Assembly (NCBI GenBank): GCA_965219325.1
Contig: OZ244723.1
Span: 1,642,158-1,706,157, forward strand
Direction: 5' to 3'
Source: Dehalococcoidia bacterium
GTDB lineage: Bacteria > Chloroflexota > Dehalococcoidia > Lucifugimonadales > UBA2962
DNA: 64,000 nt
Under the pieces are notes generated by a model. The model ran no database searches. It was not told the DNA's origin and was given only the letters and a program-made list of their open reading frames with translations. Below are positions 8,291 to 64,000 of the stretch, piece by piece (position 1 is the stretch's first letter; every line of letters begins with the position of its first letter). Both the position numbers and the translations under genes were made by a program.

Positions 8291-8307
8291 GTCTCTGTCT
8301 GGGGGCG

Positions 8308-9030: not shown

Positions 9031-9119
9031 TGCACGTCGTTCCTACTCTCCCCCGGAATTGAGTTGACCGTCATCGATTTTCGTCTCCCCTCGCCGGATT
9101 GATCCGGCCTGCCCGATTC

Positions 9120-9698: not shown

Positions 9699-9730
9699 CT
9701 ACGCTCCCCGCGAGCGTGGCCGCCGCGGCG

Positions 9731-19471: not shown

Positions 19472-19484
19472 CGTGACTACACTC

Positions 19485-19512
19485 GCTTTCCCCGCGTGTG
19501 CGGGGCATATGG
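19485..19512 (-). repeat. Solitary CRISPR-repeat-like hairpin in the cas6e-cas1 intergenic region
   Basis: The minus strand reads TGCCCCGCACACGCGGGGAAAGC, against the array repeat TCCCCCGCAGACGCGGGGATAGAC. It has the same CCCCGC/GCGGGG stem and a 4-nt loop. Confidence 0.55.
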
Positions 19513-19550
19513 CAACGTGTTATTTGATTGGTAAGGTGCGTAACCGCCGG

Positions 19551-20303: not shown

Positions 20304-21070
20304 GCCACCGCGCCCTCTTGCTGTTGAGGCGCGGGTTCCTCGGGGCCCGGCGGGAACTGCTCGCGCCCCAGGAACCCCTCGCAGACCGCTCGCCCGCCGC
20401 CGTGCAGGCCGGACACCCAGTTGCGCTGATCGGTGAGCATATGGCGCTGGTTGGGGTCGACGTCCGCCGTGCCCTCGCCTTCGGGCCATAGGGACCTTAT
20501 AGACGAGGCGCTGCCGGCTACCTTGGCAAGGGGCCAGTCCCGCAAGGCCGCCAGGGCGGTGTCGCCGTCGATGAACCCCGCGAACAGTTGGGCTGAGGGT
20601 AAGCATGGCTTGCGGCCGATGAACAGGGGGCGGGCCGGTTCCCGCAGAGCGTCTGCCAGGCCTTCCAGTGCCGGCTCTCCATCTACCGGATCGAGGCGCA
20701 GGGCGACGGTTACAATCATGTCTGCGAAGTAATCGCGGTAGCGCAGGTGATTTCGATAGTTTCCGCCACCGCGGCCTTCGGGATATCCTCGAGTGGTCCA
20801 GTTGAGTTCGGTTTTGTTGATGGCGGCGCTCTGAAAGTCCCGCATGCTGAGGCCGCCGTGGGGTTCCCGGTCGATGCGGGCGGCGAAGACCAACCTGTCC
20901 TGAAGCCCCTGATGCCGCTCCCGCTCGATGCGCCGCCAGCCCAGGGCGTTGGCCAACAGGCCGGTGAGCATTGACGCCGCCGGGAAGGATCTGATGATGC
21001 CGTAGCTGTCGACGGTTTCGCCACCGAAGGCCATCAGGGGGGATTCCAGGTTCACAATAAGGTGCCGCAT
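20300..21070 (-). CDS. cas5e: Cas5e (CasD)
   Basis: 256 aa, beginning MRHLIVNLESPLMAFGGETVDSYGIIRSFPAASMLTGLLANALG, a typical Cas5e N-terminus. Confidence 0.88.
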   Translation of the reverse strand: MRHLIVNLESPLMAFGGETVDSYGIIRSFPAASMLTGLLANALGWRRIERERHQGLQDRLVFAARIDREPHGGLSMRDFQSAAINKTELNWTTRGYPEGRGGGNYRNHLRYRDYFADMIVTVALRLDPVDGEPALEGLADALREPARPLFIGRKPCLPSAQLFAGFIDGDTALAALRDWPLAKVAGSASSIRSLWPEGEGTADVDPNQRHMLTDQRNWVSGLHGGGRAVCEGFLGREQFPPGPEEPAPQQQEGAVA

Positions 21071-21073
21071 GGT

Positions 21074-22249
21074 CTATGCCGCTTGGCCGTTGCGGACCGA
21101 GTCTGCGACCCACGATGCGAGATCGTCCAGGGACACGCGCTCGGAGTCGGGCATGTCGCAGTCCTCGACCGACATCACGCGGCGCACCTCGCGCGACCCG
21201 TAGGCCGCATCGAGCTTTTGCAGGTACCCGGACAGGGCGGTGGCGGCCTCTCCCGTCTGTGCCTCGCTGGGGTTACGGTAGGCGTTGGCGAGGCTGCGCG
21301 GCTGGCGGGATCCGGCCTCGATCAGCATCAGGTCGGCGTAGCCGTAGGGCGCGGTGGAGCCCAGCTTTGCGCCGGGCGTGACAGTGGCTATGAGATGCGT
21401 CAGATGCTCCACGACCTTGGCGGCTAGGGCTCTATCGGCGCTCTCCCACTCTTCGGCGGCGCAGCCCTCCAGGTTGGAGACCAGCCCGGGCACGTCAACC
21501 ACGACGTAGCCGTAGAACAGGCCGGCGGTGAGTTCCATATCGCCTATATGGGCGGCCCCGGAGTCCTCGTCCCCGCTCTGCAAGTCGTCGACCACTGAGA
21601 AGTAGTCGCTTTCGCTCTCCTCGCTATGCACGGTGAAAGCGTGGGCGACATGTACGGCGGCGTCGATGTTGGATCCGGGGTCCGATGTGACCATGCGTCC
21701 GAACAGGGCCCCTTCGAGTCCGGCGGGGAGTCGAGCCCCGTTCAGGAGGGCGCGGAAGTTCCTGCCCTCACCCCGGCGCGTGTTGAAAAGCTTGGTTGCG
21801 GCGTCTGCGGCGGCCTTGGTGTCTGCGGAATGTTCGGCGCAAATGGCGGCGGCCAGCTCGCGTAGGTGTTCCACTTCTGGGAGCCCCAGCAACAGGGGTT
21901 GGCGTCCGGATTCGGACGCACCGCTCTTGCCGTACACGCCGATATTGAATGCGTCCCGTACCGCATCGATAACTTCGTCGCCGTACTGGTGGCTCTCGCG
22001 CAGCGGCTCGATGATCTTTCGTTCGACCACGTTACGCGATCGCACGGCGCCCTCGGCGCCGGGGATGCTGTGGATGGCGAACTCGTCTTGTGCCACGCGC
22101 CAATGGCGCTTGAGGCACTGGGACGAAATGCGGGTCCGGATCGCTCCGCCAAAGGGCATGCGCTTGGCCAGCCCGCTGTCGTCACGGTTCAGCAGTGCCG
22201 CCGGGTAGGAGTGCAGTGTGTGGATTTGCAGGAATCTGGAGATGGTCAT
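21074..22249 (-). CDS. cas7e: Cas7e (CasC/Cse4) Cascade backbone subunit
   Basis: ORF 21074..22372. The likely true start is MTISRFLQIHTLHSYPAALLNRDDSG, with the ATG at 22249 preceded by GAGGAG. It begins after the cse2 stop at 22272. Confidence 0.88.
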   Translation of the reverse strand: MTISRFLQIHTLHSYPAALLNRDDSGLAKRMPFGGAIRTRISSQCLKRHWRVAQDEFAIHSIPGAEGAVRSRNVVERKIIEPLRESHQYGDEVIDAVRDAFNIGVYGKSGASESGRQPLLLGLPEVEHLRELAAAICAEHSADTKAAADAATKLFNTRRGEGRNFRALLNGARLPAGLEGALFGRMVTSDPGSNIDAAVHVAHAFTVHSEESESDYFSVVDDLQSGDEDSGAAHIGDMELTAGLFYGYVVVDVPGLVSNLEGCAAEEWESADRALAAKVVEHLTHLIATVTPGAKLGSTAPYGYADLMLIEAGSRQPRSLANAYRNPSEAQTGEAATALSGYLQKLDAAYGSREVRRVMSVEDCDMPDSERVSLDDLASWVADSVRNGQAA

Positions 22250-22271
22250 GGTCGAACTCCTCTGTCTGATG

Positions 22272-22889
22272 CTATTCGTGTTCGCCCGCAGGGGCCGGGG
22301 AGTTGCGTCGCGCCGCATCGTAGTAGGCGCGGGCAATGCGGCGTCGGCCCTGCTCGGCAGCCTCTTGGTCATAGCCTTCGTTCAGGATGAATTGGGCCAT
22401 CTCCCGCCAGTTGAAGGACGCGTTGGCGGCGGCAAGCATCCGGAACATCCGGGCCAGCAGGGTTCGCAGCATGGGCCCCCGCGCCGTCAGCAGGCGGTTG
22501 AGCCGAGTCTCGCTGTAAAGGGCTGAAGTCCGCTGCGATTCTCCGCCGAGGTACAGCGTCCGTCCTACGTGTCTGTAGCCGTCGTGGGGGGAGCGGGCGT
22601 TGCCGTCTCCGGCGGCCGTGGGCGTCATCAGCGCGATGCCGTGGAGGATGAGCGCCCACTTGCCTTCCAGGGTGGAACTGCCCAGCAAGTCGTGCTGGGC
22701 CAGCAGCTTCCAGAAGGCTGCGGCATAGGGGCCGTCCAGGTTCATGCGTCGCAGTTCGGCCAGATCACCCCGGCGAAATTCGGCACGGGCCATCTGTCCT
22801 GCGAAATCGACGGCGATGTCCCCCCAGGGCCGGGACTCGCCGTGTTGTGTGGGAGCGTCGGGTGCCGCTACATCTTGCGTAGTGCTCAT
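22272..22889 (-). CDS. cse2: Cse2 (CasB/Cas11e) small Cascade subunit
   Basis: 205 aa. Its position between cas8e and cas7e fits. The 4-nt overlap with the cas8e stop suggests coupling. Confidence 0.8.
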   Translation of the reverse strand: MSTTQDVAAPDAPTQHGESRPWGDIAVDFAGQMARAEFRRGDLAELRRMNLDGPYAAAFWKLLAQHDLLGSSTLEGKWALILHGIALMTPTAAGDGNARSPHDGYRHVGRTLYLGGESQRTSALYSETRLNRLLTARGPMLRTLLARMFRMLAAANASFNWREMAQFILNEGYDQEAAEQGRRRIARAYYDAARRNSPAPAGEHE

Positions 22890-24478
22890 CCATCAATCTC
22901 CTGAGTCGCTTGGTCGAAGAGGAACGGCAGGCCGCTGTTCCCGCGTATCCGTCCCTCGAACAGCCCTTCGGCGGCGACGCGGGCCCTGTAGCGGTGTATC
23001 GACGGGCAGGGCAGGGTGGACTCCGCGTCATCGAGCAGGACACGGGCGTGGTCGATCACGCCATCGCTGCCGTTCATCAACCAATTGTTCCGAATGGCCT
23101 GGCGTTCGCCGGGATTGGCCTCCAACTCGCATTGAAGGCCCTCGAAGAAGCGGGCATCCACGATTTCGTCGAGGCGGTTCAGCCAGACACGAGTCATATT
23201 GCGGTGCTCGGGACTGACCTTGTCGTGATCGCCGCGTGCGGCGAAGATCTGTATTGCGTGGCTCAGGATGCGCTGGACTATGCTGACGTTTTGAATTCGT
23301 GACTGAGCGATCTCGCCGGGTTCCGGGGATGCGTTGCGACGCAGCATGGCGGTTCGGAGCTTTTTCCTTATGGGGATGACGCGCTCGTAATAGCCTTCGG
23401 TCTTACCCTGCCCCCGTACCATCGCGCGGGCCACCAACTGCATCGTTTCGTCGGACCGCTGCTCGGAGTTGGTCGGCCTGAGCAGGGCTGGGTGTTCCCA
23501 GTCAGCCGAGTTGGTCAGGTATTCCGCGACCCGCTTGTAGTTGAACCCTCCGCGGCCCAAAGTCAGCGGCAGACCATCCTTTTTTCTATTGGTGGGAGTC
23601 CAGGGGTCGCCGGTCCTACCCTTGAAGGCCTTCCCATCTATGCGGGCCGCCTTTGACGTGGTCCTAATCCCATCTATGCGGCCGCTGGCACCGGATCGCA
23701 GGCGGATACGGCGGCACACTTCTATGTAGAGGGGATGGACGCCATTCAGCATAAGTGTCTCGGCCCGATCTCCATCCCAGGGCAGAGTCCATAGCAGCTT
23801 ATGGCCGCCATGTTGCATCGGATATTCGTCCAAGAGAGTCGGCAGGTATTCCAGCAGCGCGATGATGTCACGCCTTACGTGGGCGCCAATGCCTCCACCG
23901 GCTGGGGCAAGGGCGAATGCAGGCCTGTTGCCGAGGCCGCCGTTCATACGGGAGATACCGTAGTTGCCGGCCCCACCGAATCCCTCCATTGTCTGCAGGG
24001 TACTGAGGGCGAAGATCCAGTCGTCGAAGCTTGCATGGACCGCCACCGCCGATTTGAGGTCGTGGTTCTTGGAAGTGACCAGCATGTCCAACTCGTCGGG
24101 GGTGGAGATCGCGTCCTTGTAGTCCTTTTCCCCTTCCTTGGAACGGGCGGGGGGCTGCATGAAGGCTGGCCTGGTGATGTCGTCCACTACCAGGTGCCAT
24201 GGCTCGTCGTCCGGGTAGTGCGGCGTGAGGCCGCGAATCAGGTGACCCCACTCGTCCGCGTCTTCCGGTGGGCTGTCCCTGCCGGCTTGGTGTATCGCAA
24301 TTGCGCCGAGTTGAACCAAGAATGCGTGCCAGGCGTGGCGTTGGTGGGGACGTAGCGCCGGGAATGACGCCACGCTATCGTTCATTAGAGCGGCGTAGAC
24401 ATCCGGTAGGGATGCCTCGATGCGGCCCCCAGCGGACTGATCGAATCGGATGAGAGGTTCGGTTAGCAGATTGAGCAT
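22886..24478 (-). CDS. cas8e: Cas8e (Cse1/CasA) large Cascade subunit
   Basis: ORF 22886..24934. The likely true start is MLNLLTEPLIRFDQSAGGRIEASLPDVY, with the ATG near 24478. The 152-aa N-terminal extension in the ORF track crosses the intergenic region and the cas3 3' end. Confidence 0.85.
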   Translation of the reverse strand: MLNLLTEPLIRFDQSAGGRIEASLPDVYAALMNDSVASFPALRPHQRHAWHAFLVQLGAIAIHQAGRDSPPEDADEWGHLIRGLTPHYPDDEPWHLVVDDITRPAFMQPPARSKEGEKDYKDAISTPDELDMLVTSKNHDLKSAVAVHASFDDWIFALSTLQTMEGFGGAGNYGISRMNGGLGNRPAFALAPAGGGIGAHVRRDIIALLEYLPTLLDEYPMQHGGHKLLWTLPWDGDRAETLMLNGVHPLYIEVCRRIRLRSGASGRIDGIRTTSKAARIDGKAFKGRTGDPWTPTNRKKDGLPLTLGRGGFNYKRVAEYLTNSADWEHPALLRPTNSEQRSDETMQLVARAMVRGQGKTEGYYERVIPIRKKLRTAMLRRNASPEPGEIAQSRIQNVSIVQRILSHAIQIFAARGDHDKVSPEHRNMTRVWLNRLDEIVDARFFEGLQCELEANPGERQAIRNNWLMNGSDGVIDHARVLLDDAESTLPCPSIHRYRARVAAEGLFEGRIRGNSGLPFLFDQATQEIDG

Positions 24479-24571
24479 CTTGGAAGTATTCAGCGTGTAA
24501 CGTATAACGTTCAGCGCTGTAAATGTTACTATGGACTTACAGACGGATGTCAAGAGCCAAGTCGCAACAGA

Positions 24572-24653
24572 GTTGCCCCGCGTTCGGGGATAGCCCGACT
24601 TACAGCGCAGAGCGCTATTCCTAACTTCCCCCGCACACGCGGGGATAGAGACC
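24572..24653 (+). repeat. Two degenerate CRISPR-repeat-like elements in inverted orientation (mini-array remnant) between cas3 and cas8e
   Basis: On the plus strand: GTTGCCCCGCGTTCGGGGATAGCC (24572-24595), a 29-nt gap, then CTTCCCCCGCACACGCGGGGATAGAGACC (24625-24653). The second closely matches the crRNA-sense repeat but lies on the opposite strand to the main array. Confidence 0.6.
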
Positions 24654-24692
24654 ACAACAAGGGCCGGAAACCGGGGTCTGGCCCGCCTACGC

Positions 24693-27476
24693 TCACCGCA
24701 GGCCCAGTTCGTCGTAGCGGAATGCTCGGTCGCCGATGCGGAAGGTGAAACCCCTGTCGGCAATGTCGTGCGCGATGGGGCCGTCAACGTTGACGCCACA
24801 CAGCCACCTTGCCGGGACCGCAATGCTCTCGATGGCCCGGCCAGATTGGAATGGGCTGGGCGGCGGCGGGTCGAACTCCACATCAATGCCCTCGTCACCC
24901 AGCCGTGTGCGGATTCGCTCCTCCACGGAGTCAAAGACCACCCCGCGATTTTCGGTGTAGAAGGACTTGTCTCGCCGAATGATGGAGTTGCGGGCGGTCA
25001 GGCCCTCGGCCAACTTACCGCCCGTCACCGCGTTGGCGTGAATGCGCCAATCGTCTCCCTTGTCCTGGACGATGATCTCCAGCGCCTCTGGGTGGGTGGC
25101 CCGTTCCACCAAGTAGCGGTTCATCCTGGGGATACTCCAGTGACCAGACTCGGCAATCAGCCGCCGGGTGGCTTCCAGAATGCGGAGATCCTCGTAGACG
25201 TGGCCGTGTTGGCCGAGTCCGTTCGGGTTTTGGCCACGTTTCAGCAGCGTCGAAAGGTCTTCGCCCTCCGGCATCAATACCACGCTGCGGGGCTCTGCGT
25301 AGCCTTTGGGCCGATCGGTCCGTTGGTGTCTGTGCAGGCGGCCAATGCGCTGCAGCAACACGTCCGCCGGGCATAGGTCTGTGATCAGCAGGTCGGCATC
25401 GATGTCCAGCGATTGCTCCAGGGTCTGCGTCCCAACCACGATGACCCCATTGGAATCGCGGTCCTTGCCGAGCCGCTTCTCCACCTCGTCATCGAGCAGT
25501 CGGCGGTCGGCGGCGGTGAACCGGCCATGATGCAGCGTCGGTTTGCCCTCGCAGTCAAACAGCAGGCCGCGGTCACTGCCTTTTGCGGCCCGGTCCACCG
25601 CCTGCTGGGTGTCAACGGCGTAGTTGACCGTGTTGCGTACTACCAGGACCTTTGCCCCGGCCCGCGCCGCCCACAACGCCATTTCCGCCACCCGATCGAA
25701 GTCGTGCATCAGCGGCTCTGCCTTGATGTTGACGGTCTTCTCACGGTCGTTCCCGCCGACCCTCTCACTGTCGGATGCCATCGTGCTGAAGGCCGGGTAG
25801 GGCGAGTCGACGGCCTGATCCAGTGACATGCGGTCTTTGGGGCCTGGACGTCCTGCCGACAGCCACTCCAGCCGCGCATCGGAGCCCAGCGTTGCTGACA
25901 TCAAAAGTGCATAACCCCCCGCGCCCCGGTGGGCTTCGAGCAGGGACCTGAGTATGCGGCGCATGTACGGATCGGAGGCGTGGACCTCGTCCACGACCAG
26001 CAGGTTGCGAGATAGGCAGGCCGCCCGCATGTGAGCATGCTTTACCTTGAGTGCCGCCATCATGGCCTGGTCCACGGTGCCAACGGAGATCTGCGCCGCG
26101 AGATAACGCTTGGCGCTCTCAGCTGCCCAGCGCCTTCCCCGCGTGGCATCGTCCGGGTGGTCGTCCCACCGCACCTCGTAGTCCGGCAGGTGGCGTCCGG
26201 TAATCTCCCCGGCCTTAAGGTAGCCGGGAACTGCCAACACGACCTCCGGGCGGTGCTCTTCCGGGAACATTCGTTCGGCAAAGCGGGTTACTCGGCCGTG
26301 CAGCTGAGTGGCGGCGGCACGGGTTGGAAGAGCGAAGTACAGACCGTCGACCAGTCTCTGGTGGTACATATTGGCAAACCGCCACAGAGCCGCCTCAGTC
26401 TTACCGGAACCGGTTTCCGACTCGATGATGACCAGACGGTCATCTGGCGAGATATCCTTCGCCGCCCTGCGCTGGATGGAGTTGGGATCGAACCCGAACA
26501 GTCGGGTGAACCCGGGGAGTCCACCGCGCATCGCGTCTCGTTGACACGATATGTCCAACCCGATCTTCGAAACGGCGTCCCGAGCCCGTTTCCGTGCCTT
26601 GTCGATGTATTTCTCGTCACGTTCCGCGGAAAATGGGAACCAGTCTTCATTGGAGCCAATCCAGTCGGCCAGGGTGCACAGCCCCAGGAACATGTGCTGA
26701 AAGGCCGGCGAGGACGGAAGCGGCGGAGCGTCGGGTTTCCTGGCGGCCTCGAACCACCGGCCGACCTGCCGGCCAACGTGCCGCACGCACTCGGCGGGCT
26801 CCAGGCCAAATTGGCGGCGCCAGATTGCCGGGTTGGGTTCGCGCTGCCCCTCCAGCTGCAGGGGCAGCCCGTGGTGCGAGAGGGTGGCGACTAGCAGGGC
26901 GCAGACGGTCTCGCCCCCCTGATCGTCCCAGGACATGGCCTCATCCCACCAGCCCAGAGAGTCGAAGAACCAGCTGGCCGTGGCGCCGTCTTGGCCGCTA
27001 AGTACCGGAGTCAGGTCCAGGGTGTGTCCGGCCGGGCGGATTCGGGGGCCTTCCTGAAGGTATCGGGATTCCCAAATCTGTGTCTGAAACCCCATGTTGA
27101 CCTTGCCGATATCGTGCAGGGCGGCGAAGAGGGCAAGCCGCGCCGCGGTCGACTCGTCGATGACCTTGAGCCCGCCGGCGGTGGCCAGTCGATCCCGAAT
27201 TGTCGGCTGGGCCACCAGGGCCTCGAAGCACGCGCCTACATCGGCAAGGTGGTGCTCCAGCAGATGTATACGCTTGGGGTAACCGTCACGCGGCTGCGAT
27301 TTTGCCCAATGGAACCTGGTGTAGGCTGGCGAACTATCGGCGGTCGTTATTCTCGGCTCCCCATTCCCATTCTCGTTGACACCTGCCATCACTGGCTGCT
27401 GCTCAAAGTAGACCACGTTGTCTGTCGACGTCCAAGATAAATGTCCGTGCAAGGATATGGCCGACGTGCCGGTCAT
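24693..27476 (-). CDS. cas3: Cas3 HD-nuclease/helicase (I-E)
   Basis: 927 aa. HD domain (HLLEHHLADVG, LFAALHDIGK). Helicase motifs: SETGSGKTEAAL, LLVVDEVHASD, LLMSATL. The start may instead be MAGVNENG near 27389, because the first codons overlap the response-regulator fragment. Confidence 0.93.
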   Translation of the reverse strand: MTGTSAISLHGHLSWTSTDNVVYFEQQPVMAGVNENGNGEPRITTADSSPAYTRFHWAKSQPRDGYPKRIHLLEHHLADVGACFEALVAQPTIRDRLATAGGLKVIDESTAARLALFAALHDIGKVNMGFQTQIWESRYLQEGPRIRPAGHTLDLTPVLSGQDGATASWFFDSLGWWDEAMSWDDQGGETVCALLVATLSHHGLPLQLEGQREPNPAIWRRQFGLEPAECVRHVGRQVGRWFEAARKPDAPPLPSSPAFQHMFLGLCTLADWIGSNEDWFPFSAERDEKYIDKARKRARDAVSKIGLDISCQRDAMRGGLPGFTRLFGFDPNSIQRRAAKDISPDDRLVIIESETGSGKTEAALWRFANMYHQRLVDGLYFALPTRAAATQLHGRVTRFAERMFPEEHRPEVVLAVPGYLKAGEITGRHLPDYEVRWDDHPDDATRGRRWAAESAKRYLAAQISVGTVDQAMMAALKVKHAHMRAACLSRNLLVVDEVHASDPYMRRILRSLLEAHRGAGGYALLMSATLGSDARLEWLSAGRPGPKDRMSLDQAVDSPYPAFSTMASDSERVGGNDREKTVNIKAEPLMHDFDRVAEMALWAARAGAKVLVVRNTVNYAVDTQQAVDRAAKGSDRGLLFDCEGKPTLHHGRFTAADRRLLDDEVEKRLGKDRDSNGVIVVGTQTLEQSLDIDADLLITDLCPADVLLQRIGRLHRHQRTDRPKGYAEPRSVVLMPEGEDLSTLLKRGQNPNGLGQHGHVYEDLRILEATRRLIAESGHWSIPRMNRYLVERATHPEALEIIVQDKGDDWRIHANAVTGGKLAEGLTARNSIIRRDKSFYTENRGVVFDSVEERIRTRLGDEGIDVEFDPPPPSPFQSGRAIESIAVPARWLCGVNVDGPIAHDIADRGFTFRIGDRAFRYDELGLR

Positions 27477-42121: not shown

Positions 42122-42363
42122 GCCCGCTGGCCCTCTCCGCTCAGGACAGCAGCGTCCGCAGTGGCTCCGTAGACTTGTCCTCGTGGTGGCCGTTCCGTTG
42201 ACCGCTGCGGCCCCCGGCTCCGCCTGCGCCAGCCTCCTCCGTCCTCGCCCACTCGCAGTTCCCCGGCCTCGCTCTCCACGTCCTGTGCTCGTGTGAGTAC
42301 TTCCTCCACCGTCTCCGCCTCGTCCTCCTCGTCGCCGCTGACGATCCTGCGGGCCAGAGCCAT
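42118..42363 (-). pseudogene. Short 3'-end remnant of the same helicase family (copy C)
   Basis: ALARRIVSGDEEDEAETVEEV parallels LMALARRIVNGEEEEPETVEE in the remnant at 7959-8290. Confidence 0.45.
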
Positions 42364-42410
42364 CTACACGTGTCGAATTCTGATATCTATCTGGCTAGGA
42401 GCAGAGAGTA

Positions 42411-45085: not shown

Positions 45086-45500
45086 CTAGTCGTGGTGCCC
45101 ATTGACCGGGACCAGCCCGAGCGTCGGCCGCAATGCGTCGTGATGGCCGTTTCCGTTGACGTTGACCGGCCTCCAAGGCTCGTCTACCAGCAGCTCCACG
45201 GTCTCGGCGTCCCGCGCCTGGGCGAAGACCTCCTCCACGGTCTCGGCCTCGTCCTGCTCGCCGCTGACGATCTTCCTCGCCGTCGCCGTCGCCGTCGCCG
45301 AAGGCGGCGAACCCGTCCTCGGGCAGTTCGCCCTCGACGGCCAGCGAGTCCTGGAGCTTCCTGGTCACCAGCTTCAGGGCGTCGGCCTGCAGAGTGTTTC
45401 GGTAGCTCATGAACACGATCCTGATGGGCCGGGTCCATCTCATGCGCCACGACCGGCGCGAGGCCCGTCTCACGGTGTGAGCCAATCAGCGTCAGTCTCT
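45086..45500 (-). pseudogene. 3'-end remnant of an SNF2-type helicase gene (copy B), internally frameshifted
   Basis: HRETGLA...RPIRIVFMSYRNTLQADALKLVTRKLQDSLAVEGELPEDGFAAFG. A (GCCGTC)n tract at 45279-45300 follows, then ARKIVSGEQDEAETVEEV in another frame. Confidence 0.55.
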
Positions 45501-45511
45501 GTCTGGGGGCG

Positions 45512-46234
45512 CTATGGTTCGTCGCGTGCTGAGAGTTCCGCAAAGATCCCGAAATGGTCGGACAGCCTGCGATCGCCGTCCATGTTGCTGATCACGCCCA
45601 GGGACTCCGCCACAAGGTCATCGGTGAGGACTATGTGGTCGATGCTCCTTCGTCCCTGGTGACCGAGCGTGGAGGTCCCGATCGTCATCCCATCCGGTAT
45701 GGCTCTCCTCAGTGCCATGCGCAGGTCTACCGGCGTATGGCCTCGTTGCGAGATACGCTGGTTGAAGTCCCCCATGACGATGAGGCGGTCGGGGCGGGTA
45801 CGTGAGAGCACGCCGGCAAAGCCGGCCAGATACTCCCGATGGTCCTCCCACATCTTCCGCCCGTCTTCGGAATCCCGGACCCGGGATCTCGACCAGGGTA
45901 TGCAGGCCCCGATAACGGTGACCGGGCCTATCGACGTGTCCGTGACACCCGCCACGAACCTGCCCGGCGGCATCGACCGGTCTCCCACGTCGTCGACCCG
46001 CTCCCACGGCCGTTTGGACCAAAGCTGGACCTTTCTGCGGCCTTCCCTGATCGGGTACCCGTAGTCTTCCTGAGAACAGATCGTGTGCCCGTCTTTGAAA
46101 GACAACCCGATAACCGCCTCGGTGAGGCAGACGATCTCGGGATCATGCCGCTCTATGCGCCTACGGATCTCGACCGATCTTGGCGAGCGGGGCGTCGCCC
46201 ATTCGACGTTCCAGTTGACAAGACTCAGCGGCAT
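45512..46234 (-). CDS. EEP family protein, type 1, copy b
   Basis: 240 aa, about nine in ten residues identical by eye to 8308..9030. NWNVEW, CLTEA, GDFNQ and SDHFG are conserved. Confidence 0.8.
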   Translation of the reverse strand: MPLSLVNWNVEWATPRSPRSVEIRRRIERHDPEIVCLTEAVIGLSFKDGHTICSQEDYGYPIREGRRKVQLWSKRPWERVDDVGDRSMPPGRFVAGVTDTSIGPVTVIGACIPWSRSRVRDSEDGRKMWEDHREYLAGFAGVLSRTRPDRLIVMGDFNQRISQRGHTPVDLRMALRRAIPDGMTIGTSTLGHQGRRSIDHIVLTDDLVAESLGVISNMDGDRRLSDHFGIFAELSARDEP

Positions 46235-46323
46235 TGCACTTCGTTCCTACTCTCCCCTGGAATTGAGCCGAGTGGCATCGATTTTCATCGCTCCTCGCCG
46301 GATTGAACGGGCCCGCCCGAATC

Positions 46324-46899
46324 TCACTGTGCCGTTATGAACACGGGCTCTTTGCCGATGTACTCAAGAACGCCTCTGACCCAATCGACCGTCGCACCAG
46401 ACGTTGCAGGGCCGGTCAGCACATCGACGCGTGGCGCCAGATGCGGTGGGTCGCCCCACCTCGTCACAACGACCCTGTCCGGCCGGCCGGTCGAGGTGGC
46501 CAGCAGGCTCACATCAAAGGATGAGCCGGTGCTCGCAAGAACGGCCCGGGTCGGGCAGTGGCGGTCGAGTTCGGCCAACACCCCGCGCTTGAGTTCAATA
46601 TCATCTGCCATCGCCTCCACGGCGAAGCCGACTTCGCCCATGGCCCCTGCGACGGACGTGCTGGGGACCAGGTGCTGCAGGGCGCGGTCCGCTGTCCATC
46701 GATCCACCATACCCTGCCGTTCGAAACGGCCGAGCGCATTGCCGACATCGTCGACCGCCCGGCGCAGTTTCCCGCGCGACGACTCGACGAGCACGACCCT
46801 GAAGCCGCCGAGCGCGAGGGATAGCGCGATACCCTGTGCGGTATCTCCCACGCCGACCACGGCCGCATCGCCCACTGGTTGTATCCCCCCGTTTGGCAT
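46324..46899 (-). CDS. 3HCDH_N-like NAD-binding domain protein, copy b
   Basis: 191 aa, a close paralogue of 9120..9698 (GVGDTA, FAVEAMADDIELKRGVLAELD, VVVTRWGDPPH). Confidence 0.7.
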   Translation of the reverse strand: MPNGGIQPVGDAAVVGVGDTAQGIALSLALGGFRVVLVESSRGKLRRAVDDVGNALGRFERQGMVDRWTADRALQHLVPSTSVAGAMGEVGFAVEAMADDIELKRGVLAELDRHCPTRAVLASTGSSFDVSLLATSTGRPDRVVVTRWGDPPHLAPRVDVLTGPATSGATVDWVRGVLEYIGKEPVFITAQ

Positions 46900-46931
46900 C
46901 TACGCTCCCCGCGGGGGAGGCCGTCGCGGGG

Positions 46932-47780
46932 TCATGAGACCTCGATCACGATGCGGCAGTGGTCGCTGGGACCCCAGTGGTCCGGATCGTTCAGGGCACG
47001 CACACGCACGGAATCGTCCATATCCCGGGACGCGAAGACGAAGTCCAACTGGCGGGTGGCAGTGGATGGGCCCCGGCCGATCGGGTAGTACGTGGGGACA
47101 TTCCTGCTGCTGCTGGGAAGCTCACCCGGCCATGGATCCGCCTGCCGACCGTTGGGCGCCTGCGGGCCTACGAAAGAGAGGCCTAGTGCCTCCATCCTGT
47201 CGAACACCGTTCCGTACCGTCCGGCCCAATATTCGCTGCCGCCATCCCCATGTCCCCTGAGAATGTTCAGATCGCCAGCAGTCAGAATGCGATGGCCGTC
47301 CTGTCTGCCTATGAACGTGGATAGATCCGAGACCACGCGGTGTGCCGACGCGTCCGAGACGATCCAGCGGCTGTTAGAAGTGGCGTGAGGTCTCTCCCAT
47401 AGAGCGTACATGGAGACCGCCACGAATGGCTCGATCCCGGGGGACGAAACAAGCGCGGCGGTGACTGTCCCGGGACGGCTGACGGCGAACTCCCCCGAGC
47501 GCGCTTCCTCCATAGCCTTGGGCGTAATCCATTCCACCTCCACTCGATCAGAGAGCCTTGCTATCGCTGTCCTGCGGGTCCACCCGGTCCATCCAACAGT
47601 TGTCCAGGGAGCGGGATCGACGTCAATTCGCCTGCGTAATTCCTCGGGCGGGCGATCCGCCTCCTGCAGGAGAGCGACATCGGCGTCCATCGCGATCAGA
47701 CAATGCCAGGGATCCGTCCTGCCGTCGATGTTCCAAGAGACGAGCCTAACTGCCAACGAGCCGACATTCCTTCCGGTCAT
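46932..47780 (-). CDS. EEP family protein, type 2, copy b (full length)
   Basis: 282 aa with EEP landmarks: VSWNIDG, VALLQEA, TAGDLNI and PSDHCRIVIEVS. Confidence 0.78.
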   Translation of the reverse strand: MTGRNVGSLAVRLVSWNIDGRTDPWHCLIAMDADVALLQEADRPPEELRRRIDVDPAPWTTVGWTGWTRRTAIARLSDRVEVEWITPKAMEEARSGEFAVSRPGTVTAALVSSPGIEPFVAVSMYALWERPHATSNSRWIVSDASAHRVVSDLSTFIGRQDGHRILTAGDLNILRGHGDGGSEYWAGRYGTVFDRMEALGLSFVGPQAPNGRQADPWPGELPSSSRNVPTYYPIGRGPSTATRQLDFVFASRDMDDSVRVRALNDPDHWGPSDHCRIVIEVS

Positions 47781-47991: not shown

Positions 47992-48987
47992 CTAGCCCTC
48001 TTCCCGAGCGCCATTGCCTTCCATCCTCTCCAGGACATCCTCCAAATGAGGCTGGAATGCGGTTCGGAATTTGGTGAGGTTCTCGGTCATCCACTTCCTG
48101 ATCTCGCCCAGTTCTTCTTCAGAGGAATCTATGCGGCCAGGTCGAGATACCGCCACCCTGCTCATCTTCGAGTCATCCATCCGTTCCCAAATCATCGCTC
48201 CGAGTTCATTCTCGATCTGCGCCTGGGACTCTTTCAGTAGATCGAACGCAGCTTTGTTCCAAGCCCTGTCCGTACCCTTGACCTGTAGTTCCACTCTGGC
48301 CTCGCCGTCCCAGGTGAACCGCATGGTGCGCCCGAACCTGGAAGAGCCTATGCCAGCACCGGCATAGTAGGTTGACCCCTTGTAGCGCGTTCCTACGTTC
48401 CATCCGTGCGTCCTGCGCAGATCCTCGAGCAGGGGGCGCCAGAAGCGAATGTATTTCTCTTGCGTTGGAGTCGCCTCGCCCTGAGCCTCTCCGGCATCCT
48501 TTGACCATGTGTTGGGTGCGGCCGCCAAACGGAACAGAGGTGCGGGGAGTGAATCGCCTATTCTCACCGCCTGCACCTCGACACCGAAGAAGCTGAGTGA
48601 ATCCCTGGTGCCCTCGTTGAGCCAGTCCAATGCGGCCCTGTGTTCGTCACGGAACTTGGTGGCGATCCACACCACGACGCTTGCGTTCTTTCCGGCCGAA
48701 TAAGTGAGCAGTTGGCCCAAATGCGCATGGTCCGTGTTGGCGATCTGGTTTTCGATGGCTACTACTGCGTCACTGTTGGCATCTTTGGCGAGTATGTCCA
48801 GGGAGAAGTTGCCAACCGGGACCTCCGTGCCTTCCAGTTCCAGATCCATGCCGAGTTCACTGCCGAGCAGCGGCAGATTGTCTGCCAGCCAGGGGGTGAA
48901 GTCGTTGGCCTCATGTGGCCAGACGCTCGTAATGGGCACCTGCTCTATGCTGCCGATCTTCTGCTGTGTCATTTGGACGTGCTCCAT
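47992..48987 (-). CDS. PD-(D/E)xK nuclease-like N-domain plus DUF4268-like C-domain protein
   Basis: GNFSLDILAKDANSDAVVAIENQIANTDHAHLGQLLTYSAG is a pattern I associate with DUF4268-family proteins. Confidence 0.65.
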   Translation of the reverse strand: MEHVQMTQQKIGSIEQVPITSVWPHEANDFTPWLADNLPLLGSELGMDLELEGTEVPVGNFSLDILAKDANSDAVVAIENQIANTDHAHLGQLLTYSAGKNASVVVWIATKFRDEHRAALDWLNEGTRDSLSFFGVEVQAVRIGDSLPAPLFRLAAAPNTWSKDAGEAQGEATPTQEKYIRFWRPLLEDLRRTHGWNVGTRYKGSTYYAGAGIGSSRFGRTMRFTWDGEARVELQVKGTDRAWNKAAFDLLKESQAQIENELGAMIWERMDDSKMSRVAVSRPGRIDSSEEELGEIRKWMTENLTKFRTAFQPHLEDVLERMEGNGAREEG

Positions 48988-49855: not shown

Positions 49856-51775
49856 TTGACCGGAGATACGTCCTTCTATGAGCGCACTCCATCGCCAGAG
49901 CTCAGGGCGCTTCTCGCGCCGGGAGGGTTTCTGGCTCCCCTGATTGATCTCAGGGATCGAAAGATCGCCAGCCTGTTTCTCGACGTGCACCTGAGGGCCA
50001 ACGACGAGGTGCACGTCTACTGTGGCTTGGCGCGCCTGATGAACGTCCGGAGGAACAGGAGCGGGACCGTCAGGGTCTCTGCGCACAGGACCTTCAGCCG
50101 CCAGGGCTGCGCAAAGGAACTCCTTCGTACGTGGAAGGTGAGCGAGTCCGAAGGCTTCAGGAAGGCCCTGGACACTTATCTCCGGGGCGTGAAGGTTGAC
50201 CCGAGGCACACGGCCGGTGAGGGAGAGGTGCAGTCCATGTGGGCCAGCGTCACCGAGCCCTGGATTCCATTCGACAGGGAGGCGGTCCTCGGCGGGCAGG
50301 GCAGAGAACACGAAAGAGTCGAGGCCGCCCGCATCGCGCTGGAGGACCTCGCAGCCTCGCAGGGTAAGTCGTCCGGGCGGAGGGACAGTTGGTCGGCGCC
50401 CCCTGCAAAGGGCCGCGAGGTCGACCAGGTCGCCGTCGATCCGGAGGGCCGCCTAGTGCTGCTTGAGCTCAAGGACGCGAAGGCAGGCAATGCGCCCGTC
50501 TACTACGCGCCATTCCAGTTGCTACAGTACGGTTGGGACTGGCATGAAGCCCTCGAATGCGTGCGGAGCCGGCTGCAGGACCTGATCGATGCGCGCGTGG
50601 AGTTGGGACTGACACCCGGTACCATCCCCCGGCTCACCGGCGGCATCCGGGCCGCAGTGTGCTTCGCCAACGACAATAGAACAGAGGAGGTGAGGCGTCG
50701 CTACGAGATGGTCGTAGAAGAGGTGAACAAGCACCTTCCTCCATGCGTTCCCAGGATCGAGACGTGGGCTCTAGAGTACCGGCCCGAGCCGGTGCGGCTT
50801 AGCAGCAGTCATGCAAGATCCGATCCCCACCGCCGTCCGTCCTCGTTCGCGGAATCCCTGCAGGCGCATCTCGAGGAGTGGCGAGCCGGCGTTGACGGAT
50901 CGCGAGATCGGACATGGTCCGTCTGGACCGACGGCATCTGCCCAGCGTACCGGCAGCTTGCAGAGGATGTGGTGCGGGATGACGAGATGAGGCTCCACAC
51001 CTATGCCAACCACCTTAGGAGTTCCCAGATCTTCGCATTCAACCTGTTCCTTCCCTTCCGGGAAGGAGAGAAATCGAAGCTATCGGACTTGGTGAGCGAG
51101 ACGATAGACACCGGGTTTTCCATCGAGGAGGTGCGCTTCGAGTGGGTGCCTCCCGGCGCGCTGCTCGGCGAAATTGCGGGCGACCGACCTTCCCCAGGCG
51201 AGCCCGCAACGGCGGTTGATGTCGCTCTGTGGGGGCAAGTAGGGGATGGTGGCCGAGCAGCCGTCCTGCTGGAGGTGAAGCTGAGCGAGACCGACTTTAT
51301 GCACTGCAATGGCCGCACCAGCCCAGGAAACCGAAGAACGGACGTGTGTGATTCCGCCGCCACGTTCTTTGACGACCCTGTCGCATGCTACCTTCGGAGA
51401 CCCCGGCGGAGCCGGCGGGACAGACGTTACTGGGAGATCTTCAAGCAGAGTCACGGCAGCGTTCGTGCGGCATTCCCCGGAGCGGACCTGGAAGGTCCAT
51501 GCCCGTTCGCCTTCAGCATGCAGCAGCCGATGCGGAACCTGGCCGTGGCACGGGGACTGGAACTGGATGGGGAAAGCGGTGTGGACAAGGCATGGTTCGC
51601 TCTCTGCTCACACGACGACAATCCGGATGCGGCCCGGCACTGGAAGGACTGGAATCGTCTGCTTGCAGATCAGTCCATGGCGCCGAGACTTCCTGCGTCT
51701 AAGGTCGTGCGGGCAGGGGAGGCCGATGGATTCGGCGACTGGGCGGCTTGCATGCGCGAACGCTACCGTCTGTGA
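49856..51775 (+). CDS. 639-aa protein with two PD-(D/E)xK-like nuclease motifs
   Basis: First motif: VDQVAVDPEGRLVLLELKDAK...FQLLQYGWDW (D..ExK plus QxxxY, RecB/Cas4-like). Second motif: VDVALWG...AAVLLEVKLSETDF. TTG start in the track. Confidence 0.55.
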   Translation: MTGDTSFYERTPSPELRALLAPGGFLAPLIDLRDRKIASLFLDVHLRANDEVHVYCGLARLMNVRRNRSGTVRVSAHRTFSRQGCAKELLRTWKVSESEGFRKALDTYLRGVKVDPRHTAGEGEVQSMWASVTEPWIPFDREAVLGGQGREHERVEAARIALEDLAASQGKSSGRRDSWSAPPAKGREVDQVAVDPEGRLVLLELKDAKAGNAPVYYAPFQLLQYGWDWHEALECVRSRLQDLIDARVELGLTPGTIPRLTGGIRAAVCFANDNRTEEVRRRYEMVVEEVNKHLPPCVPRIETWALEYRPEPVRLSSSHARSDPHRRPSSFAESLQAHLEEWRAGVDGSRDRTWSVWTDGICPAYRQLAEDVVRDDEMRLHTYANHLRSSQIFAFNLFLPFREGEKSKLSDLVSETIDTGFSIEEVRFEWVPPGALLGEIAGDRPSPGEPATAVDVALWGQVGDGGRAAVLLEVKLSETDFMHCNGRTSPGNRRTDVCDSAATFFDDPVACYLRRPRRSRRDRRYWEIFKQSHGSVRAAFPGADLEGPCPFAFSMQQPMRNLAVARGLELDGESGVDKAWFALCSHDDNPDAARHWKDWNRLLADQSMAPRLPASKVVRAGEADGFGDWAACMRERYRL

Positions 51776-52406: not shown

Positions 52407-53297
52407 CTAATCTGCTGCAATTTCGATGAGTAGTCGGCAGTGGTCGCTCGCGCCCCACTCCTCAACAGAATTCATGGCCCGCACCGTGATGCACTCGTGA
52501 AAGCCGCGGGAGGCGAAGACGTAATCGAGTTGATTGTTGCTTGTCGTCTCCGGCTTCTTACCGGGTAGGCAGTATGTGACGACGTTGCGGGAGTCGGCGG
52601 GCTCTCCCGTAGCCGGTGTCTTTGCCTGCCGACCATTCGGTGCCTGCGGCCCCGTGAACTCCAGCCCGATGGTTGTCATCCTCTCGAAGACGGACCGGTA
52701 TCGTGCCTCCCAGTAGGAGGGGTCGCCGCCATCGCCATAGCCGTGCGCGATGTTGAGATCGCCAGCAGCCAGTATGCGATGTGTCCGCGGATTCTCGTGG
52801 CCTATGAAGGCCGAGAGATCCGAGATGATCCTGTGAACGGAAGAGTCGGCGTAGCCGAAGCCCCACGCCGTCTTGACGCCCGGATGCGACCCGATCCAGC
52901 GGCCGTACATGGAGACGGCGAAGAACGGTCCGACCGAGCCGTCACGGGGCGTTATGCGGGCGGCCGCTATCGTCCCGATGCCGCTCACGGCGATCTCGTC
53001 ACACTCTGTCCAGCCTATCGGACTGACCTGCCTGAACCACTCGACTTCGACCCGGTCCGATAGCTTCACCACCATCGGCCAGCGGTCGTACAGTTTCGGG
53101 TACCGATCTTCGTACCAGCGCGAGTTCCAGACATGTGAGTCCCAGTGCTCTACCGGGCCGATATCCACTCTATCGGCGACGTCGGAGGGAGGGTCTGCCG
53201 CCTCCTGCAGCAGAGCTATGTCCACGTCCAACTCCAGAAGCTGGCGCCACGGCCGGAGTCGCTTGGCGATGTTCCAACTCACTACTGATACAGTCAA
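52407..53297 (-). CDS. EEP family protein, type 2, copy c
   Basis: 296 aa (VSWNIAK, IALLQEA, AAGDLNI, ASDHCRLLIEI). Diverged paralogue of 46932..47780. Confidence 0.78.
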   Translation of the reverse strand: MTVSVVSWNIAKRLRPWRQLLELDVDIALLQEAADPPSDVADRVDIGPVEHWDSHVWNSRWYEDRYPKLYDRWPMVVKLSDRVEVEWFRQVSPIGWTECDEIAVSGIGTIAAARITPRDGSVGPFFAVSMYGRWIGSHPGVKTAWGFGYADSSVHRIISDLSAFIGHENPRTHRILAAGDLNIAHGYGDGGDPSYWEARYRSVFERMTTIGLEFTGPQAPNGRQAKTPATGEPADSRNVVTYCLPGKKPETTSNNQLDYVFASRGFHECITVRAMNSVEEWGASDHCRLLIEIAAD

Positions 53298-53369
53298 TGA
53301 ATCCTCCGATGTGACTTTAGTGATCCCCCAACTATCCTCTTTGGTCCCTCGGGAGTGAAGAGACTGACA

Positions 53370-54092
53370 CTACTTGAGGTTTTGGGCAGACAGGTCGGCG
53401 ACTACGCCGAAATGGTCTGACAGCTTCCTACCCTCATGGATGTTGCTGATCACACTCAGGGAGCCAACCACCCAGTCCGCGCTCAGTGCAATGTGATCGA
53501 TATTGCTACGTCCCTGGAAGACAAGCTCCGACGTGGCGATTTCCATGCCCGGCGAGAAGGCCTCCCGAAGTGCCAATTGAAGCTCGGAACGCGCGAGGCT
53601 ACCTGGTCCTACAATCTGGTTGAAATCCCCCATCACTATCAGACGCTTGGCATCCGCCCGATCGAGCACCTCAGTGAGACCTCCCAGATACTGTTCATGG
53701 TCCTCCCATGGCGCCTTGCGCTCCGGCTTGCGGTTAGCCTCAGTCCGTGATCCGAACCAGGGGATGCAGATTCCCATGACGGCGACCTCGCCCATTGACG
53801 TTTGCGTGACGCCCGACACGAATCGACCGGGCGGCATCGAGTCGATGCCCAGGTCGTCCACCTGCTCCCACGGTCGCCTGGACCACAGCAGAACCTTCCT
53901 GCGGCCCCGCTTGATCGGATACCCGTAGTCTTCTCGCGAGCAGATCATGTGCCCTTCCCGGGAGAGCAGCGCGGCGTCCGTCTCGATCAGGCAGACGATC
54001 TCGGGATCATGCCCCTCAATGCGCCTGAGGATCTCGGGAGATCTGCGTGAGCCGGGCGTGGACCACGCGACGTTCCAGTTGACCAGTTTCAA
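53370..54092 (-). CDS. EEP family protein, type 1, copy c
   Basis: 240 aa (NWNVAW, VCLIET, MGDFNQ, LSDHFG). About half the residues are identical by eye to copies a and b. Confidence 0.78.
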   Translation of the reverse strand: MKLVNWNVAWSTPGSRRSPEILRRIEGHDPEIVCLIETDAALLSREGHMICSREDYGYPIKRGRRKVLLWSRRPWEQVDDLGIDSMPPGRFVSGVTQTSMGEVAVMGICIPWFGSRTEANRKPERKAPWEDHEQYLGGLTEVLDRADAKRLIVMGDFNQIVGPGSLARSELQLALREAFSPGMEIATSELVFQGRSNIDHIALSADWVVGSLSVISNIHEGRKLSDHFGVVADLSAQNLK

Positions 54093-63519: not shown

Positions 63520-64000
63520 TCATTCCCCGGCCGAATCGCCATCCAGTGGCAACACGACCGGCTCCTTGCCGATGTACTCCAGGACGCGCCTGGTAATACC
63601 AATTGTGCGTTCGGTCGTCTGGGGACCGCCAACGACTTCGACGCGCGGCATTCCATGAGGGGGACATCCCCACCTTGTCACGACGACCCTGTCCGGTCGG
63701 CCGGTCGCCTCAGCTAACTCATTAGCGGGGTATGAAGACGAGGTGGATGCGAGAACGGTCCGTGGTGGGCAGTGCCGATCAAGGTCCGCCAGGATGCGCC
63801 GCTTCAACTCCAGATCCTCAGGCACGGCCTCGATCGCAAAGCCGACCTGGCGCATCTTCTCGCCAATCGACATGCTAGTTCGAATGAACTCGAGAGCCAT
63901 CCTGTCGACGGATACGTGGACTGCCCCACGCCTTTCGAGGTCATCCGTCATGGTCCTGATCTTCTCCATCGCCCTCTGGAGGTTCCTGCGAGACGAGTCG
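63520..64000 (-). CDS. 3HCDH_N-like NAD-binding domain protein, copy c (5' end beyond the window)
   Basis: FAIEAVPEDLELKRRILADLDRHCPPRTVLASTSSS...RPDRVVVTRWGCPPH...IGKEPVVL is collinear with copies a and b. The frame is open to the window edge. Confidence 0.7.
   Translation of the reverse strand, partial: DSSRRNLQRAMEKIRTMTDDLERRGAVHVSVDRMALEFIRTSMSIGEKMRQVGFAIEAVPEDLELKRRILADLDRHCPPRTVLASTSSSYPANELAEATGRPDRVVVTRWGCPPHGMPRVEVVGGPQTTERTIGITRRVLEYIGKEPVVLPLDGDSAGE

Follow-up and report, generated by a model that had tools for sequence, protein, structure and literature searches.

A truncated 3-hydroxyacyl-CoA dehydrogenase domain without its catalytic histidine in two types of hydrolase cassette from bacterial defense islands

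What role can a dehydrogenase domain play among hydrolase genes of a defense island once both its catalytic base and its C-terminal domain are gone? The question is raised by a gene at positions 46324-46899 (minus strand) of a 64,000-nucleotide stretch of contig OZ244723.1 (assembly GCA_965219325.1) from a Dehalococcoidia bacterium; the whole stretch is referred to here as the window. An initial annotation had described the product, designated HCDHN (copy b), as a catalytically dead, C-terminally truncated 3-hydroxyacyl-CoA dehydrogenase acting as a dinucleotide-binding sensor or regulatory subunit. The analysis presented here retains the description of the protein, and it gives about an even chance, from sequence, that HCDHN binds NAD+/ADP-ribose without redox chemistry and serves neighboring hydrolases as a sensor or adaptor subunit.

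The protein matches PF02737 (3HCDH_N) over profile positions 2-177 of 180 (E 5.2e-35), in keeping with the collinearity proposed at the outset, and Pfam matched no other domain in it. The nearest NCBIfam entries are PRK06129-type 3-hydroxyacyl-CoA dehydrogenases; because the score is 102 bits against a cut-off of 347 bits, HCDHN is not an equivalog of any curated enzyme. An AlphaFold2 model, for which the input alignment comprised 20 family sequences, has a mean predicted local distance difference test score (pLDDT) of 89.3, with disorder confined to residues 1-7 (pLDDT below 50). The comparison with solved 3-hydroxyacyl-CoA dehydrogenases (HAD) and 3-hydroxybutyryl-CoA dehydrogenases (HBD) that the initial annotation had called for was carried out with this model. 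The top Foldseek matches were all HAD, HBD, FadB or lambda-crystallin N-domains, and the best superposition was on the N-domain of the NAD+-bound HBD of Clostridium acetobutylicum (6aa8; query TM-score, TMq, 0.91; root-mean-square deviation, rmsd, 1.2 Å).

Truncation of the chain is equally clear. The last residues of HCDHN are KEPVFITAQ; the PGFxxNR motif, which would come next, is missing together with all of 3HCDH_C, and because only 89 nt separate the gene from the one that follows, there is no room for a C-domain behind it. A separate, adjacent 3HCDH_C partner, named beforehand as evidence that would count against a dead dehydrogenase, was found in none of the 14 loci examined, including the neighbor gene calls of 10 foreign loci. 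A profile search of the 3.25-Mb genome for PF00725 returned a sole match, inside a canonical full-length enzyme at 1214114-1214956. A split enzyme with its C-domain encoded by a separate gene was ruled out by the genome search and the neighbor lists.

In human HAD, H158 is the general base. The importance of the active-site residues is established by earlier work on human HAD, and structures of its S137, E170, N208 and E110 mutants are among the Foldseek matches. Two stretches of HCDHN, VVVTRWGDPPHLAPRVDVLTG and RPDRVVVTRWGDPPHLAPRVDVLTG, were aligned gaplessly by phmmer to solved HBD, HAD and lambda-crystallin chains. In these alignments the catalytic His is replaced by Arg147, the Asn of HFFNP by Asp150 and the dyad Glu by Asp159, while the Ser of the NTSS motif is kept as S127; the Asn of PGFxxNR is absent, being beyond the truncation point. 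The altered active-site loop reads VVVTRWGDPPH at 46324-46899 and 9120-9698 and VVVTRWGCPPH at 63520-63999, so that the loss of His noted earlier extends to all three window copies. Across the family (51 sequences in all, with denominators that vary by position), position 147 is Arg in 45, Lys in three and Gly in one of 49 members, never His, such that Arg or Lys occupies it in 48/49. The position of the dyad Glu carries Glu in 28, Asp in 18 and Arg in three; an acid is thus kept while its His partner is gone. Accordingly, the initial account of the His/Glu pair stands in full for His (0/49) and only in part for Glu, which is conservatively changed to Asp here and still Glu in 28/49. The HFFNP Asn position is Asp, Ser or Cys in the family. 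With the catalytic pair broken and no C-domain partner found, the interpretation as a dead, truncated dehydrogenase holds.

The dinucleotide pocket has fared better. HCDHN has the two sequence marks of a dinucleotide-binding Rossmann domain, a G-x-G-x-x-G/A loop (GVGDTA, of the GxGxxA form) and an acid ending strand 2 (E39), together with EAxxDDIELK and ASTGSS motifs. Within the family, G16 is conserved in 44/45, G18 in 36/45 (Glu, Ala, Arg or Asp in the other nine), G/A21 in 44/45, an acid at position 39 in 38/47, and S127 in 43/49; W148 (46/46), R139 (49/50), K104 (49/50), E95 (50/51) and H153 (44/49) are likewise conserved. Conservation peaks in the former active-site loop, RPDRVVVTRWG.PPH..RVE, together with E95 and K104, the residues that contact NAD. 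MPNGGxQPxGD, which makes up residues 1-11 (window 46870-46899, codons 1-11), is also near-invariant in both of the cassette types described below and in orphan copies, with synonymous changes at the DNA level. This conserved N-terminal stretch, whose residues 1-7 are those predicted to be disordered, may be a docking peptide.

The ancestry of the domain is suggested by the canonical enzyme of the same genome (a 337-aa frame), which reads RPDRVIVTHYANPPHFVPLVEIVGGP, followed by PGFILNRLQ..., and has the active-site loop VTHYANPPH. Because this signature is shared, HCDHN can be traced to the lambda-crystallin-like clade; it would descend from an H-Y/W-x-N-P-P-H dehydrogenase that lost its C-terminal substrate/dimerization domain and acquired Arg where the catalytic His had been, and would no longer perform 3-hydroxyacyl or sugar-acid dehydrogenation. 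His153 of the 'PPH' motif was considered as a relocated catalytic base and ruled out, since it is also present in the genome's canonical enzyme and the whole parent clade; this His is therefore ancestral rather than compensatory. When 1.84 billion representatives (50% identity) were searched with a profile, the short family amounted to essentially one cluster (P0037, 330 bits) plus fragments, followed by full-length or tandem-duplicated AHYFNPPH proteins at no more than 276 bits. The closest full-length relatives (P0293, P0294, P0295, P0298, P0299 and P0301; 590-653 aa) carry two complete tandem 3HCDH units (N+C, N+C). A full-length lambda-crystallin-like sister clade (P0296, P0297 and P0300) reads V-A-N-W-W-N-P-P-H, with Asn for the catalytic His and a complete C-domain; here the catalytic base could have been lost or rewired a second time, independently.

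The HCDHN family is small, rare and lineage-restricted. In a search of 5.8 billion clusters, some 50 proteins turned up whose sole domain is PF02737; they measure 105-208 aa and come almost without exception from metagenome-assembled genomes (MAGs) in ENA, one of them named Dehalococcoidia. At 178-208 aa, the family's clusters (about 50) stem nearly all from Dehalococcoidia-type MAGs and keep T-R/K-W (48/49); no member, up to the longest at 208 aa, has a C-domain. Of 401 genomes sampled from the class to which the source organism belongs, the source genome alone carries the family, and the GTDB species representatives contain only two other HCDHN loci. No relatives were found in IMG/VR or JGI metagenomes. 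An origin as a phage or anti-defense gene was rejected, there being no PHROG match, IMG/VR relative or close viral fold match. HCDHN evolves as a gene under purifying, fairly relaxed selection: the ratio of nonsynonymous to synonymous substitution rates (dN/dS; Nei-Gojobori, 55 pairs from 11 loci) ranges from 0.17 to 0.53, including pairs with dS above 1. The searchable literature contains nothing linking 3HCDH or 3-hydroxyacyl-CoA dehydrogenase to anti-phage defense, defense islands or ADP-ribosylglycohydrolase, and a conserved truncated 3HCDH_N module common to two hydrolase cassettes in defense islands is undescribed there.

Besides the three copies in the window (copy b at 46324-46899, copy a at 9120-9698 and a third at 63520-63999), tblastn placed a fourth, short copy at genome position 1989858. 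Copy b lies between two genes of the endonuclease/exonuclease/phosphatase (EEP) fold, and this order, EEP2 (282 aa)-HCDHN-EEP1 (240 aa), is found again at genome 1989049-1991299. Loci of this arrangement, termed type A, are window copy b, L002, L006, L007, L010 and L027 (the prefix L denotes individual HCDHN loci); the gene order with an EEP2-HCDHN spacer of 32-35 nt is repeated in L006, L007, L010 and L027. A simple scan detected no promoter or terminator within the copy b cassette, the lone terminator-like site (45064-45049) lying downstream of EEP1, consistent with a single operon. No Rfam match to a conserved regulatory RNA was obtained in the window, nor is there conservation 5' of the HCDHN start codon between cassette types. 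The copy a cassette is truncated, its EEP2 being reduced to the last 23 codons. A DNA duplication of 1.8 kb (8009-9803 versus 45226-47004; 88% identical) covers EEP1, HCDHN and the region downstream of EEP1; short matches to its tail also occur at 42267-42375.

L009 and two mutually syntenic loci, L008 and L026, have orphan HCDHN genes without cassette partners. In the syntenic pair (L008 6756-8278; L026 5755-7277), UvrD/PD-(D/E)XK genes precede the orphan, and genes for a pyridoxal phosphate (PLP)-dependent decarboxylase and an ACT-domain protein come after it. Transposases flank this block, and L026 contains an EEP2 remnant at 7510-7837. This setting may be a third context or merely reflect shared ancestry.

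The partner proteins of copy b match PF03372, and both keep the residues on which EEP catalysis depends (N, E, D-x-N, D and S-D-H). In the EEP1 family alignment, N9, E39, D156-x-N158 and D226-H227 are invariant; in that of EEP2, E40, D170-x-N172 and D273-H274 are invariant and N17 is nearly so, with the N, E, D-x-N and S-D-H motifs kept. The AlphaFold2 model of EEP1 (pLDDT 87.2) is closest in fold to TDP2 (Foldseek E 3e-13, TMq ~0.71), followed by TRAS1/L1 endonucleases and ExoIII/APE1, and sequence-only PDB searches with the EEPs gave weak ExoIII/APE matches only. On its modeled fold, EEP1 is assigned to the nucleic-acid branch of the superfamily and not to that of Nocturnin/CCR4. That the EEPs are Nocturnin-like NADP(H) phosphatases was considered and rejected, since the folds matched by the EEP1 model are those of TDP2, retrotransposon endonucleases and APE/ExoIII, not of CCR4/Nocturnin; a 2'-phosphate ligand is also hard to square with the acid that follows strand 2 in HCDHN.

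The two EEP families are very large, with more than 1000 (EEP1) and more than 4200 (EEP2) clusters at 60-70% identity, and HCDHN is the rare accessory to these widespread hydrolases, not the reverse. Because an EEP1c-EEP2c pair in the window has no HCDHN between its genes, EEP genes also travel without the Rossmann protein. Approximately eight EEP2-type loci, including remnants, were counted in the 3.25-Mb genome, several of them stand-alone or truncated; those besides the cassettes lie at genome positions 337334, 1694567, 1741838, 1832649, 1983957 and 1992284. The EEP2 family clusters include a MAG labeled Gammaproteobacteria. The distribution of EEP2 is that of a horizontally mobile single-gene module.

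A second cassette type was recognized from the HCDHN copy at the end of the window. Upstream of it and on the same strand, the genome encodes an ADP-ribosylglycohydrolase (ARG; PF03747, E 3e-78), a DSP-PTPase and a DUF6508 protein. The phosphatase contains HCWGGVGRTG, an HCxxGxxR motif, and matches PF22785, PF22784 and PF22741 (E 1e-16 for PF22785/PF22784). The phosphatase-ARG-HCDHN order of this type B cassette (L012) is repeated in L013 and L014. A decayed form, L025, retains an 86-residue ARG remnant just upstream of HCDHN, with an intact ARG 3.6 kb away. The DUF6508 protein (PF20118, E 1e-34) lies upstream of the operon in L012 (5120-5755; genome 1708119-1708754) and is absent in L013 and L014.

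If a dinucleotide pocket serves the partner enzymes, it might be expected to persist only alongside them, and the 14 loci with readable neighbors allow the two to be compared. The central P-loop residue, G18, is Gly in all six intact cassettes (window copy b, L002, L007, L012, L013 and L014) and in three of the eight broken or orphan loci (window copy a, L008 and L026). In the remaining five it is replaced: by Glu in L006, where EEP2 has a W16-to-stop change plus frameshifts; by Ala in L010, where EEP2 is frameshifted; by Arg in L027, where EEP1 is cut to 39 residues, and in L025, where only the ARG remnant lies upstream; and by Asp in the orphan L009. The one-sided Fisher probability for this association is 0.028, a value to be read with the caution that the loci are related and that some frameshifts are possibly assembly errors. 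The pattern is suggestively as expected if the pocket matters only while the partner enzymes work. Together, the paralogous operon with ARG and DSP-PTPase and the tracking of the P-loop glycine with partner-gene integrity make the link of HCDHN to NAD stronger than in the initial annotation.

The setting is a dense defense island, which contains a type I-E CRISPR-Cas system, a double methyltransferase, PDC-S11/DUF4268, REase-ARP and GmrSD-AlbA_2 proteins and NERD helicases (Table 1). The DUF4268 protein (47992-48987), which matches the PADLOC candidate system PDC-S11 (E 4e-102), lies between cassette b and the REase-ARP gene, and a REase-ARP homologue also occurs near the type A cassette of L010. 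Paralogues of the NERD-UvrD-like helicase adjoin two other HCDHN/EEP loci (L011 and L012). The CRISPR array, which adjoins the type I-E cas operon, contains two copies of a 427-nt block (15839-16722) with 100% identity. A PHROG match was obtained for none of the three proteins of the cassette.

Table 1. Features of the window discussed in the text.
Feature	Position	Strand	Evidence
EEP1 of copy a, 90% identical to that of copy b	8308-9030	-	tblastn
HCDHN copy a, 192 aa, with 82% identity to copy b	9120-9698	-	tblastn
EEP2 remnant (last 23 residues), upstream of HCDHN copy a	9734-9802	-	tblastn
CRISPR array, ~94 repeats, 61-nt period, repeat GGTCTATCCCCGCGTCTGCGGGGGAACC	12484-18187		
Type I-E cas genes (Cas1, CRISPR_assoc/Cas6e-like, Cas7 CT1975, Cse1, Cas3)	18527-27476		
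PD40/LRR protein, 791 aa	33537-35912		
EEP1, EEP-fold, 240 aa, start 89 nt downstream of HCDHN	45512-46234	-	PF03372, E 6e-16
HCDHN copy b, stand-alone 3HCDH_N Rossmann domain, 191 aa	46324-46899	-	Pfam, PDB alignments, AlphaFold2, Foldseek
EEP2, EEP-fold, 282 aa, stop 32 nt upstream of HCDHN	46932-47780	-	PF03372, E 5e-05
REase-ARP / PD-(D/E)XK protein, 639 aa, ~2 kb from cassette b	49856-51775	+	PF22558, E 1.4e-23
EEP1c-EEP2c pair without HCDHN between (EEP1c 53370-54092, EEP2c 52407-53297)	52407-54092	-	Pfam; tblastn, 45-58% identity to cassette EEPs
CBS-domain protein, 370 aa	54330-55442		
GmrSD_N-AlbA_2 protein, 706 aa	55845-57965		
NERD-UvrD-like helicase, 576 aa	60799-62529		
HCDHN type B copy, 197 aa in full, 5' end beyond window (equivalent 64113), 53-56% identical to other window copies	63520-63999	-	tblastn

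How might such a protein work? The analysis shows the truncation, the residue changes, the fold, the purifying selection, both cassette types and the association of P-loop with partner integrity; what we infer is the ligand, a physical or functional link between HCDHN and the hydrolases, and a part in countering phages or ADP-ribosylation. The retained G-x-G-x-x-G/A loop, acid after strand 2, E95, K104 and S127 would preserve a dinucleotide pocket, whose ligand would most likely be NAD+/NADH or ADP-ribose without a 2'-phosphate. HCDHN could then act as a ligand-sensing or substrate-presenting subunit of small hydrolase cassettes in defense islands, its partners being two putatively nucleic-acid-type EEP phosphodiesterases in type A and ADP-ribosylglycohydrolase plus a cysteine phosphatase in type B. 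A bolder extension, which we regard as improbable, makes HCDHN a 'reader' of ADP-ribose-type adducts in cassettes that undo phage-inflicted ADP-ribosylation. Loss of the C-domain would open the nicotinamide side of the pocket, allowing HCDHN to hold ADP-ribose attached to DNA, RNA or protein, or the end of an NAD-capped RNA, with Arg147 touching the linkage; the adduct would be presented to interchangeable removers, namely TDP2-like EEP phosphodiesterases in type A and ARG plus the Cys-phosphatase in type B. These proposals are directly testable, HCDHN being a small protein predicted to fold well.

Several observations weigh against a ligand-binding subunit of defense hydrolases. Relatives of EEP1 and EEP2 are mostly single genes in unrelated neighborhoods, so HCDHN joins them only now and then, and the three genes may not form a single functional unit; HCDHN itself also occurs alone (L008, L009 and L026). 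The central P-loop glycine is missing in approximately 20% of members, so that dinucleotide binding would not be universal, and a dN/dS of 0.2-0.5 is rather relaxed. Close kinship of the loci within each cassette type means that both the context counts and the Fisher probability of 0.028 overstate independence. Finally, PADLOC-DB 2.0 has no model matching HCDHN, EEP2, EEP1, EEP2c or EEP1c at E 0.01 or better. Some of these points recur in a different account, unlikely in our estimation, in which HCDHN is a ligand-independent partner of the hydrolases (an inhibitor or antitoxin, scaffold or chaperone), the Rossmann fold is a mere scaffold and MPNGGxQPxGD docks. The Glu, Arg, Asp or Ala at the central P-loop position in 9/45 members would be explained, as would the near-invariance of the first 11 residues across both cassette types despite disorder at 1-7; moreover, the HCDHN gene is flanked by two intact nucleases, an arrangement that an immunity gene might have. 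However, wherever neighbors could be read, the non-Gly P-loops all belong to cassettes with broken or missing partners, and the peak of conservation at RPDRVVVTRWG.PPH..RVE, E95 and K104 suits a ligand site better than a scaffold. That one family accompanies two unrelated hydrolase sets is likewise awkward for a specific antitoxin.

The remaining accounts concern what is left of the enzyme and whether its neighbors matter at all. Could HCDHN be a rewired oxidoreductase that uses Arg147, Asp/Glu159 and Ser127 on a ribose- or ADP-ribose-derived hydroxyl, perhaps in a pocket completed by a partner? In favor are the retention of Ser127 and of an acid at the dyad position, the peak of conservation at the active-site loop, the presence in the parent clade of sugar-acid dehydrogenases such as L-gulonate 3-dehydrogenase (3ado is among the best matches), and the full-length sister clade with Asn at the His position (P0296 and P0300), which indicates that change is tolerated there. 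Nevertheless, the general base is gone in every member, arginine is a poor substitute for one, and the PGFxxNR Asn is absent along with the whole substrate-binding C-domain, for which neither the loci nor the genome offer a 3HCDH_C-like partner; rewired catalysis is thus improbable. Hardly less so is a horizontally mobile metabolic accessory outside defense, involved in NAD(H) buffering or salvage, whose neighbors are coincidental. Such an accessory would fit orphans that adjoin tyrosyl-tRNA synthetase or PLP decarboxylase and ACT genes, the transposases around L008 and L026, and EEP1 homologues in housekeeping-like synteny, but not the recurrence of type A (32-35 nt from EEP2 stop to HCDHN start) and type B order and spacing across separate assemblies, the decay of the P-loop together with its partners, or the density of known defense genes around all copies in the genome. 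Least probable by far is a functionless dehydrogenase remnant carried along by segmental duplication of the island. Truncation exactly at the domain border, spread through 88%-identical duplications and the presence of several copies in decaying cassettes are what one would expect of such a remnant; yet dN/dS stays at 0.2-0.5 even at dS above 1, the frame is intact in all 14 loci, length is constant, members with no more than 55% identity still share R147 and W148 invariantly, and the conserved N-terminal codons carry synonymous changes. This account is largely refuted by the selection data.

Set beside known proteins, HCDHN most resembles the N-terminal NAD-binding fold of HAD, HBD and L-gulonate 3-dehydrogenase (6aa8, 9fbd, 1f0y and 3ado; TM 0.9, rmsd 1.2-1.6 Å), with which it shares the glycine-rich loop, the acid after strand 2, EAxxExxxxK, the NTSS Ser and the RPxR-strand-loop-VE arrangement; the H-Y/W-x-N-P-P-H signature of the lambda-crystallin-like clade is the closest in sequence. 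Unlike these enzymes, it lacks the C-terminal domain (and with it half of the substrate cleft, the interface for dimerization and the PGFxxNR Asn), has Arg in place of the catalytic His, carries a conserved 10-residue N-terminal extension, and is encoded in hydrolase cassettes of defense islands rather than in fatty-acid or butyrate operons. Dead-enzyme Rossmann domains that serve as nucleotide sensors are known in principle. Rex, for example, is a non-catalytic Rossmann-type NAD(H) sensor whose dehydrogenase-like fold reads the NAD pool instead of catalyzing. The likeness to Rex is one of concept and fold class, as HCDHN belongs to a different Rossmann subfamily and has no DNA-binding or other output domain. 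EEP1, in turn, shares its fold and its invariant metal and catalytic residues with the TDP2, AP-endonuclease and retrotransposon-endonuclease branch, and differs in its low identity (14-18%), an rmsd of 3.4-5 Å and the lack of accessory domains. To our knowledge, no member of this branch works with a Rossmann subunit. If the sensor or adaptor role of HCDHN is correct, a very large and uncharacterized pair of EEP families (>1000 and >4200 clusters) would be tied to NAD/ADP-ribose biology.

The type B cassette has a closer precedent: Iyer, Burroughs, Anantharaman and Aravind (Viruses 2022, PMC9503650) have predicted ARG-centered systems. In the part of that article devoted to them, ARG is tightly coupled to phosphatases of the Rhodanese-Phosphatase superfamily (R-P) with no cognate ADP-ribosyltransferase, this core is accompanied by variable nucleases and helicases, and the systems are proposed to let the host counteract ADP-ribosylation by viruses, ADP-ribose being sensed by Nudix or WYL transcription factors (PMC9503650). 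The REase-ARP Pfam family, a member of which is encoded near cassette b, takes its name from association with ARG-plus-R-P systems (PMC9503650, section 3.8). Neither section 3.8 nor text-term searches of the article returned a 3HCDH_N/Rossmann or EEP component. Relative to the systems as outlined there, type B differs in its dead Rossmann protein and in having no adjacent transcription factor called in the gene lists, and type A at 46324-46899 departs further, with two EEP enzymes instead of ARG and an R-P phosphatase. The resemblance of type B to the published outline is nonetheless considerable: a coupled core of ARG and an R-P cysteine phosphatase lies among nucleases and helicases, and no ADP-ribosyltransferase was called among the neighboring genes. 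If HCDHN acts with this core as suggested, it would add a component to ARG-centric anti-ADP-ribosylation systems, themselves so far a prediction.

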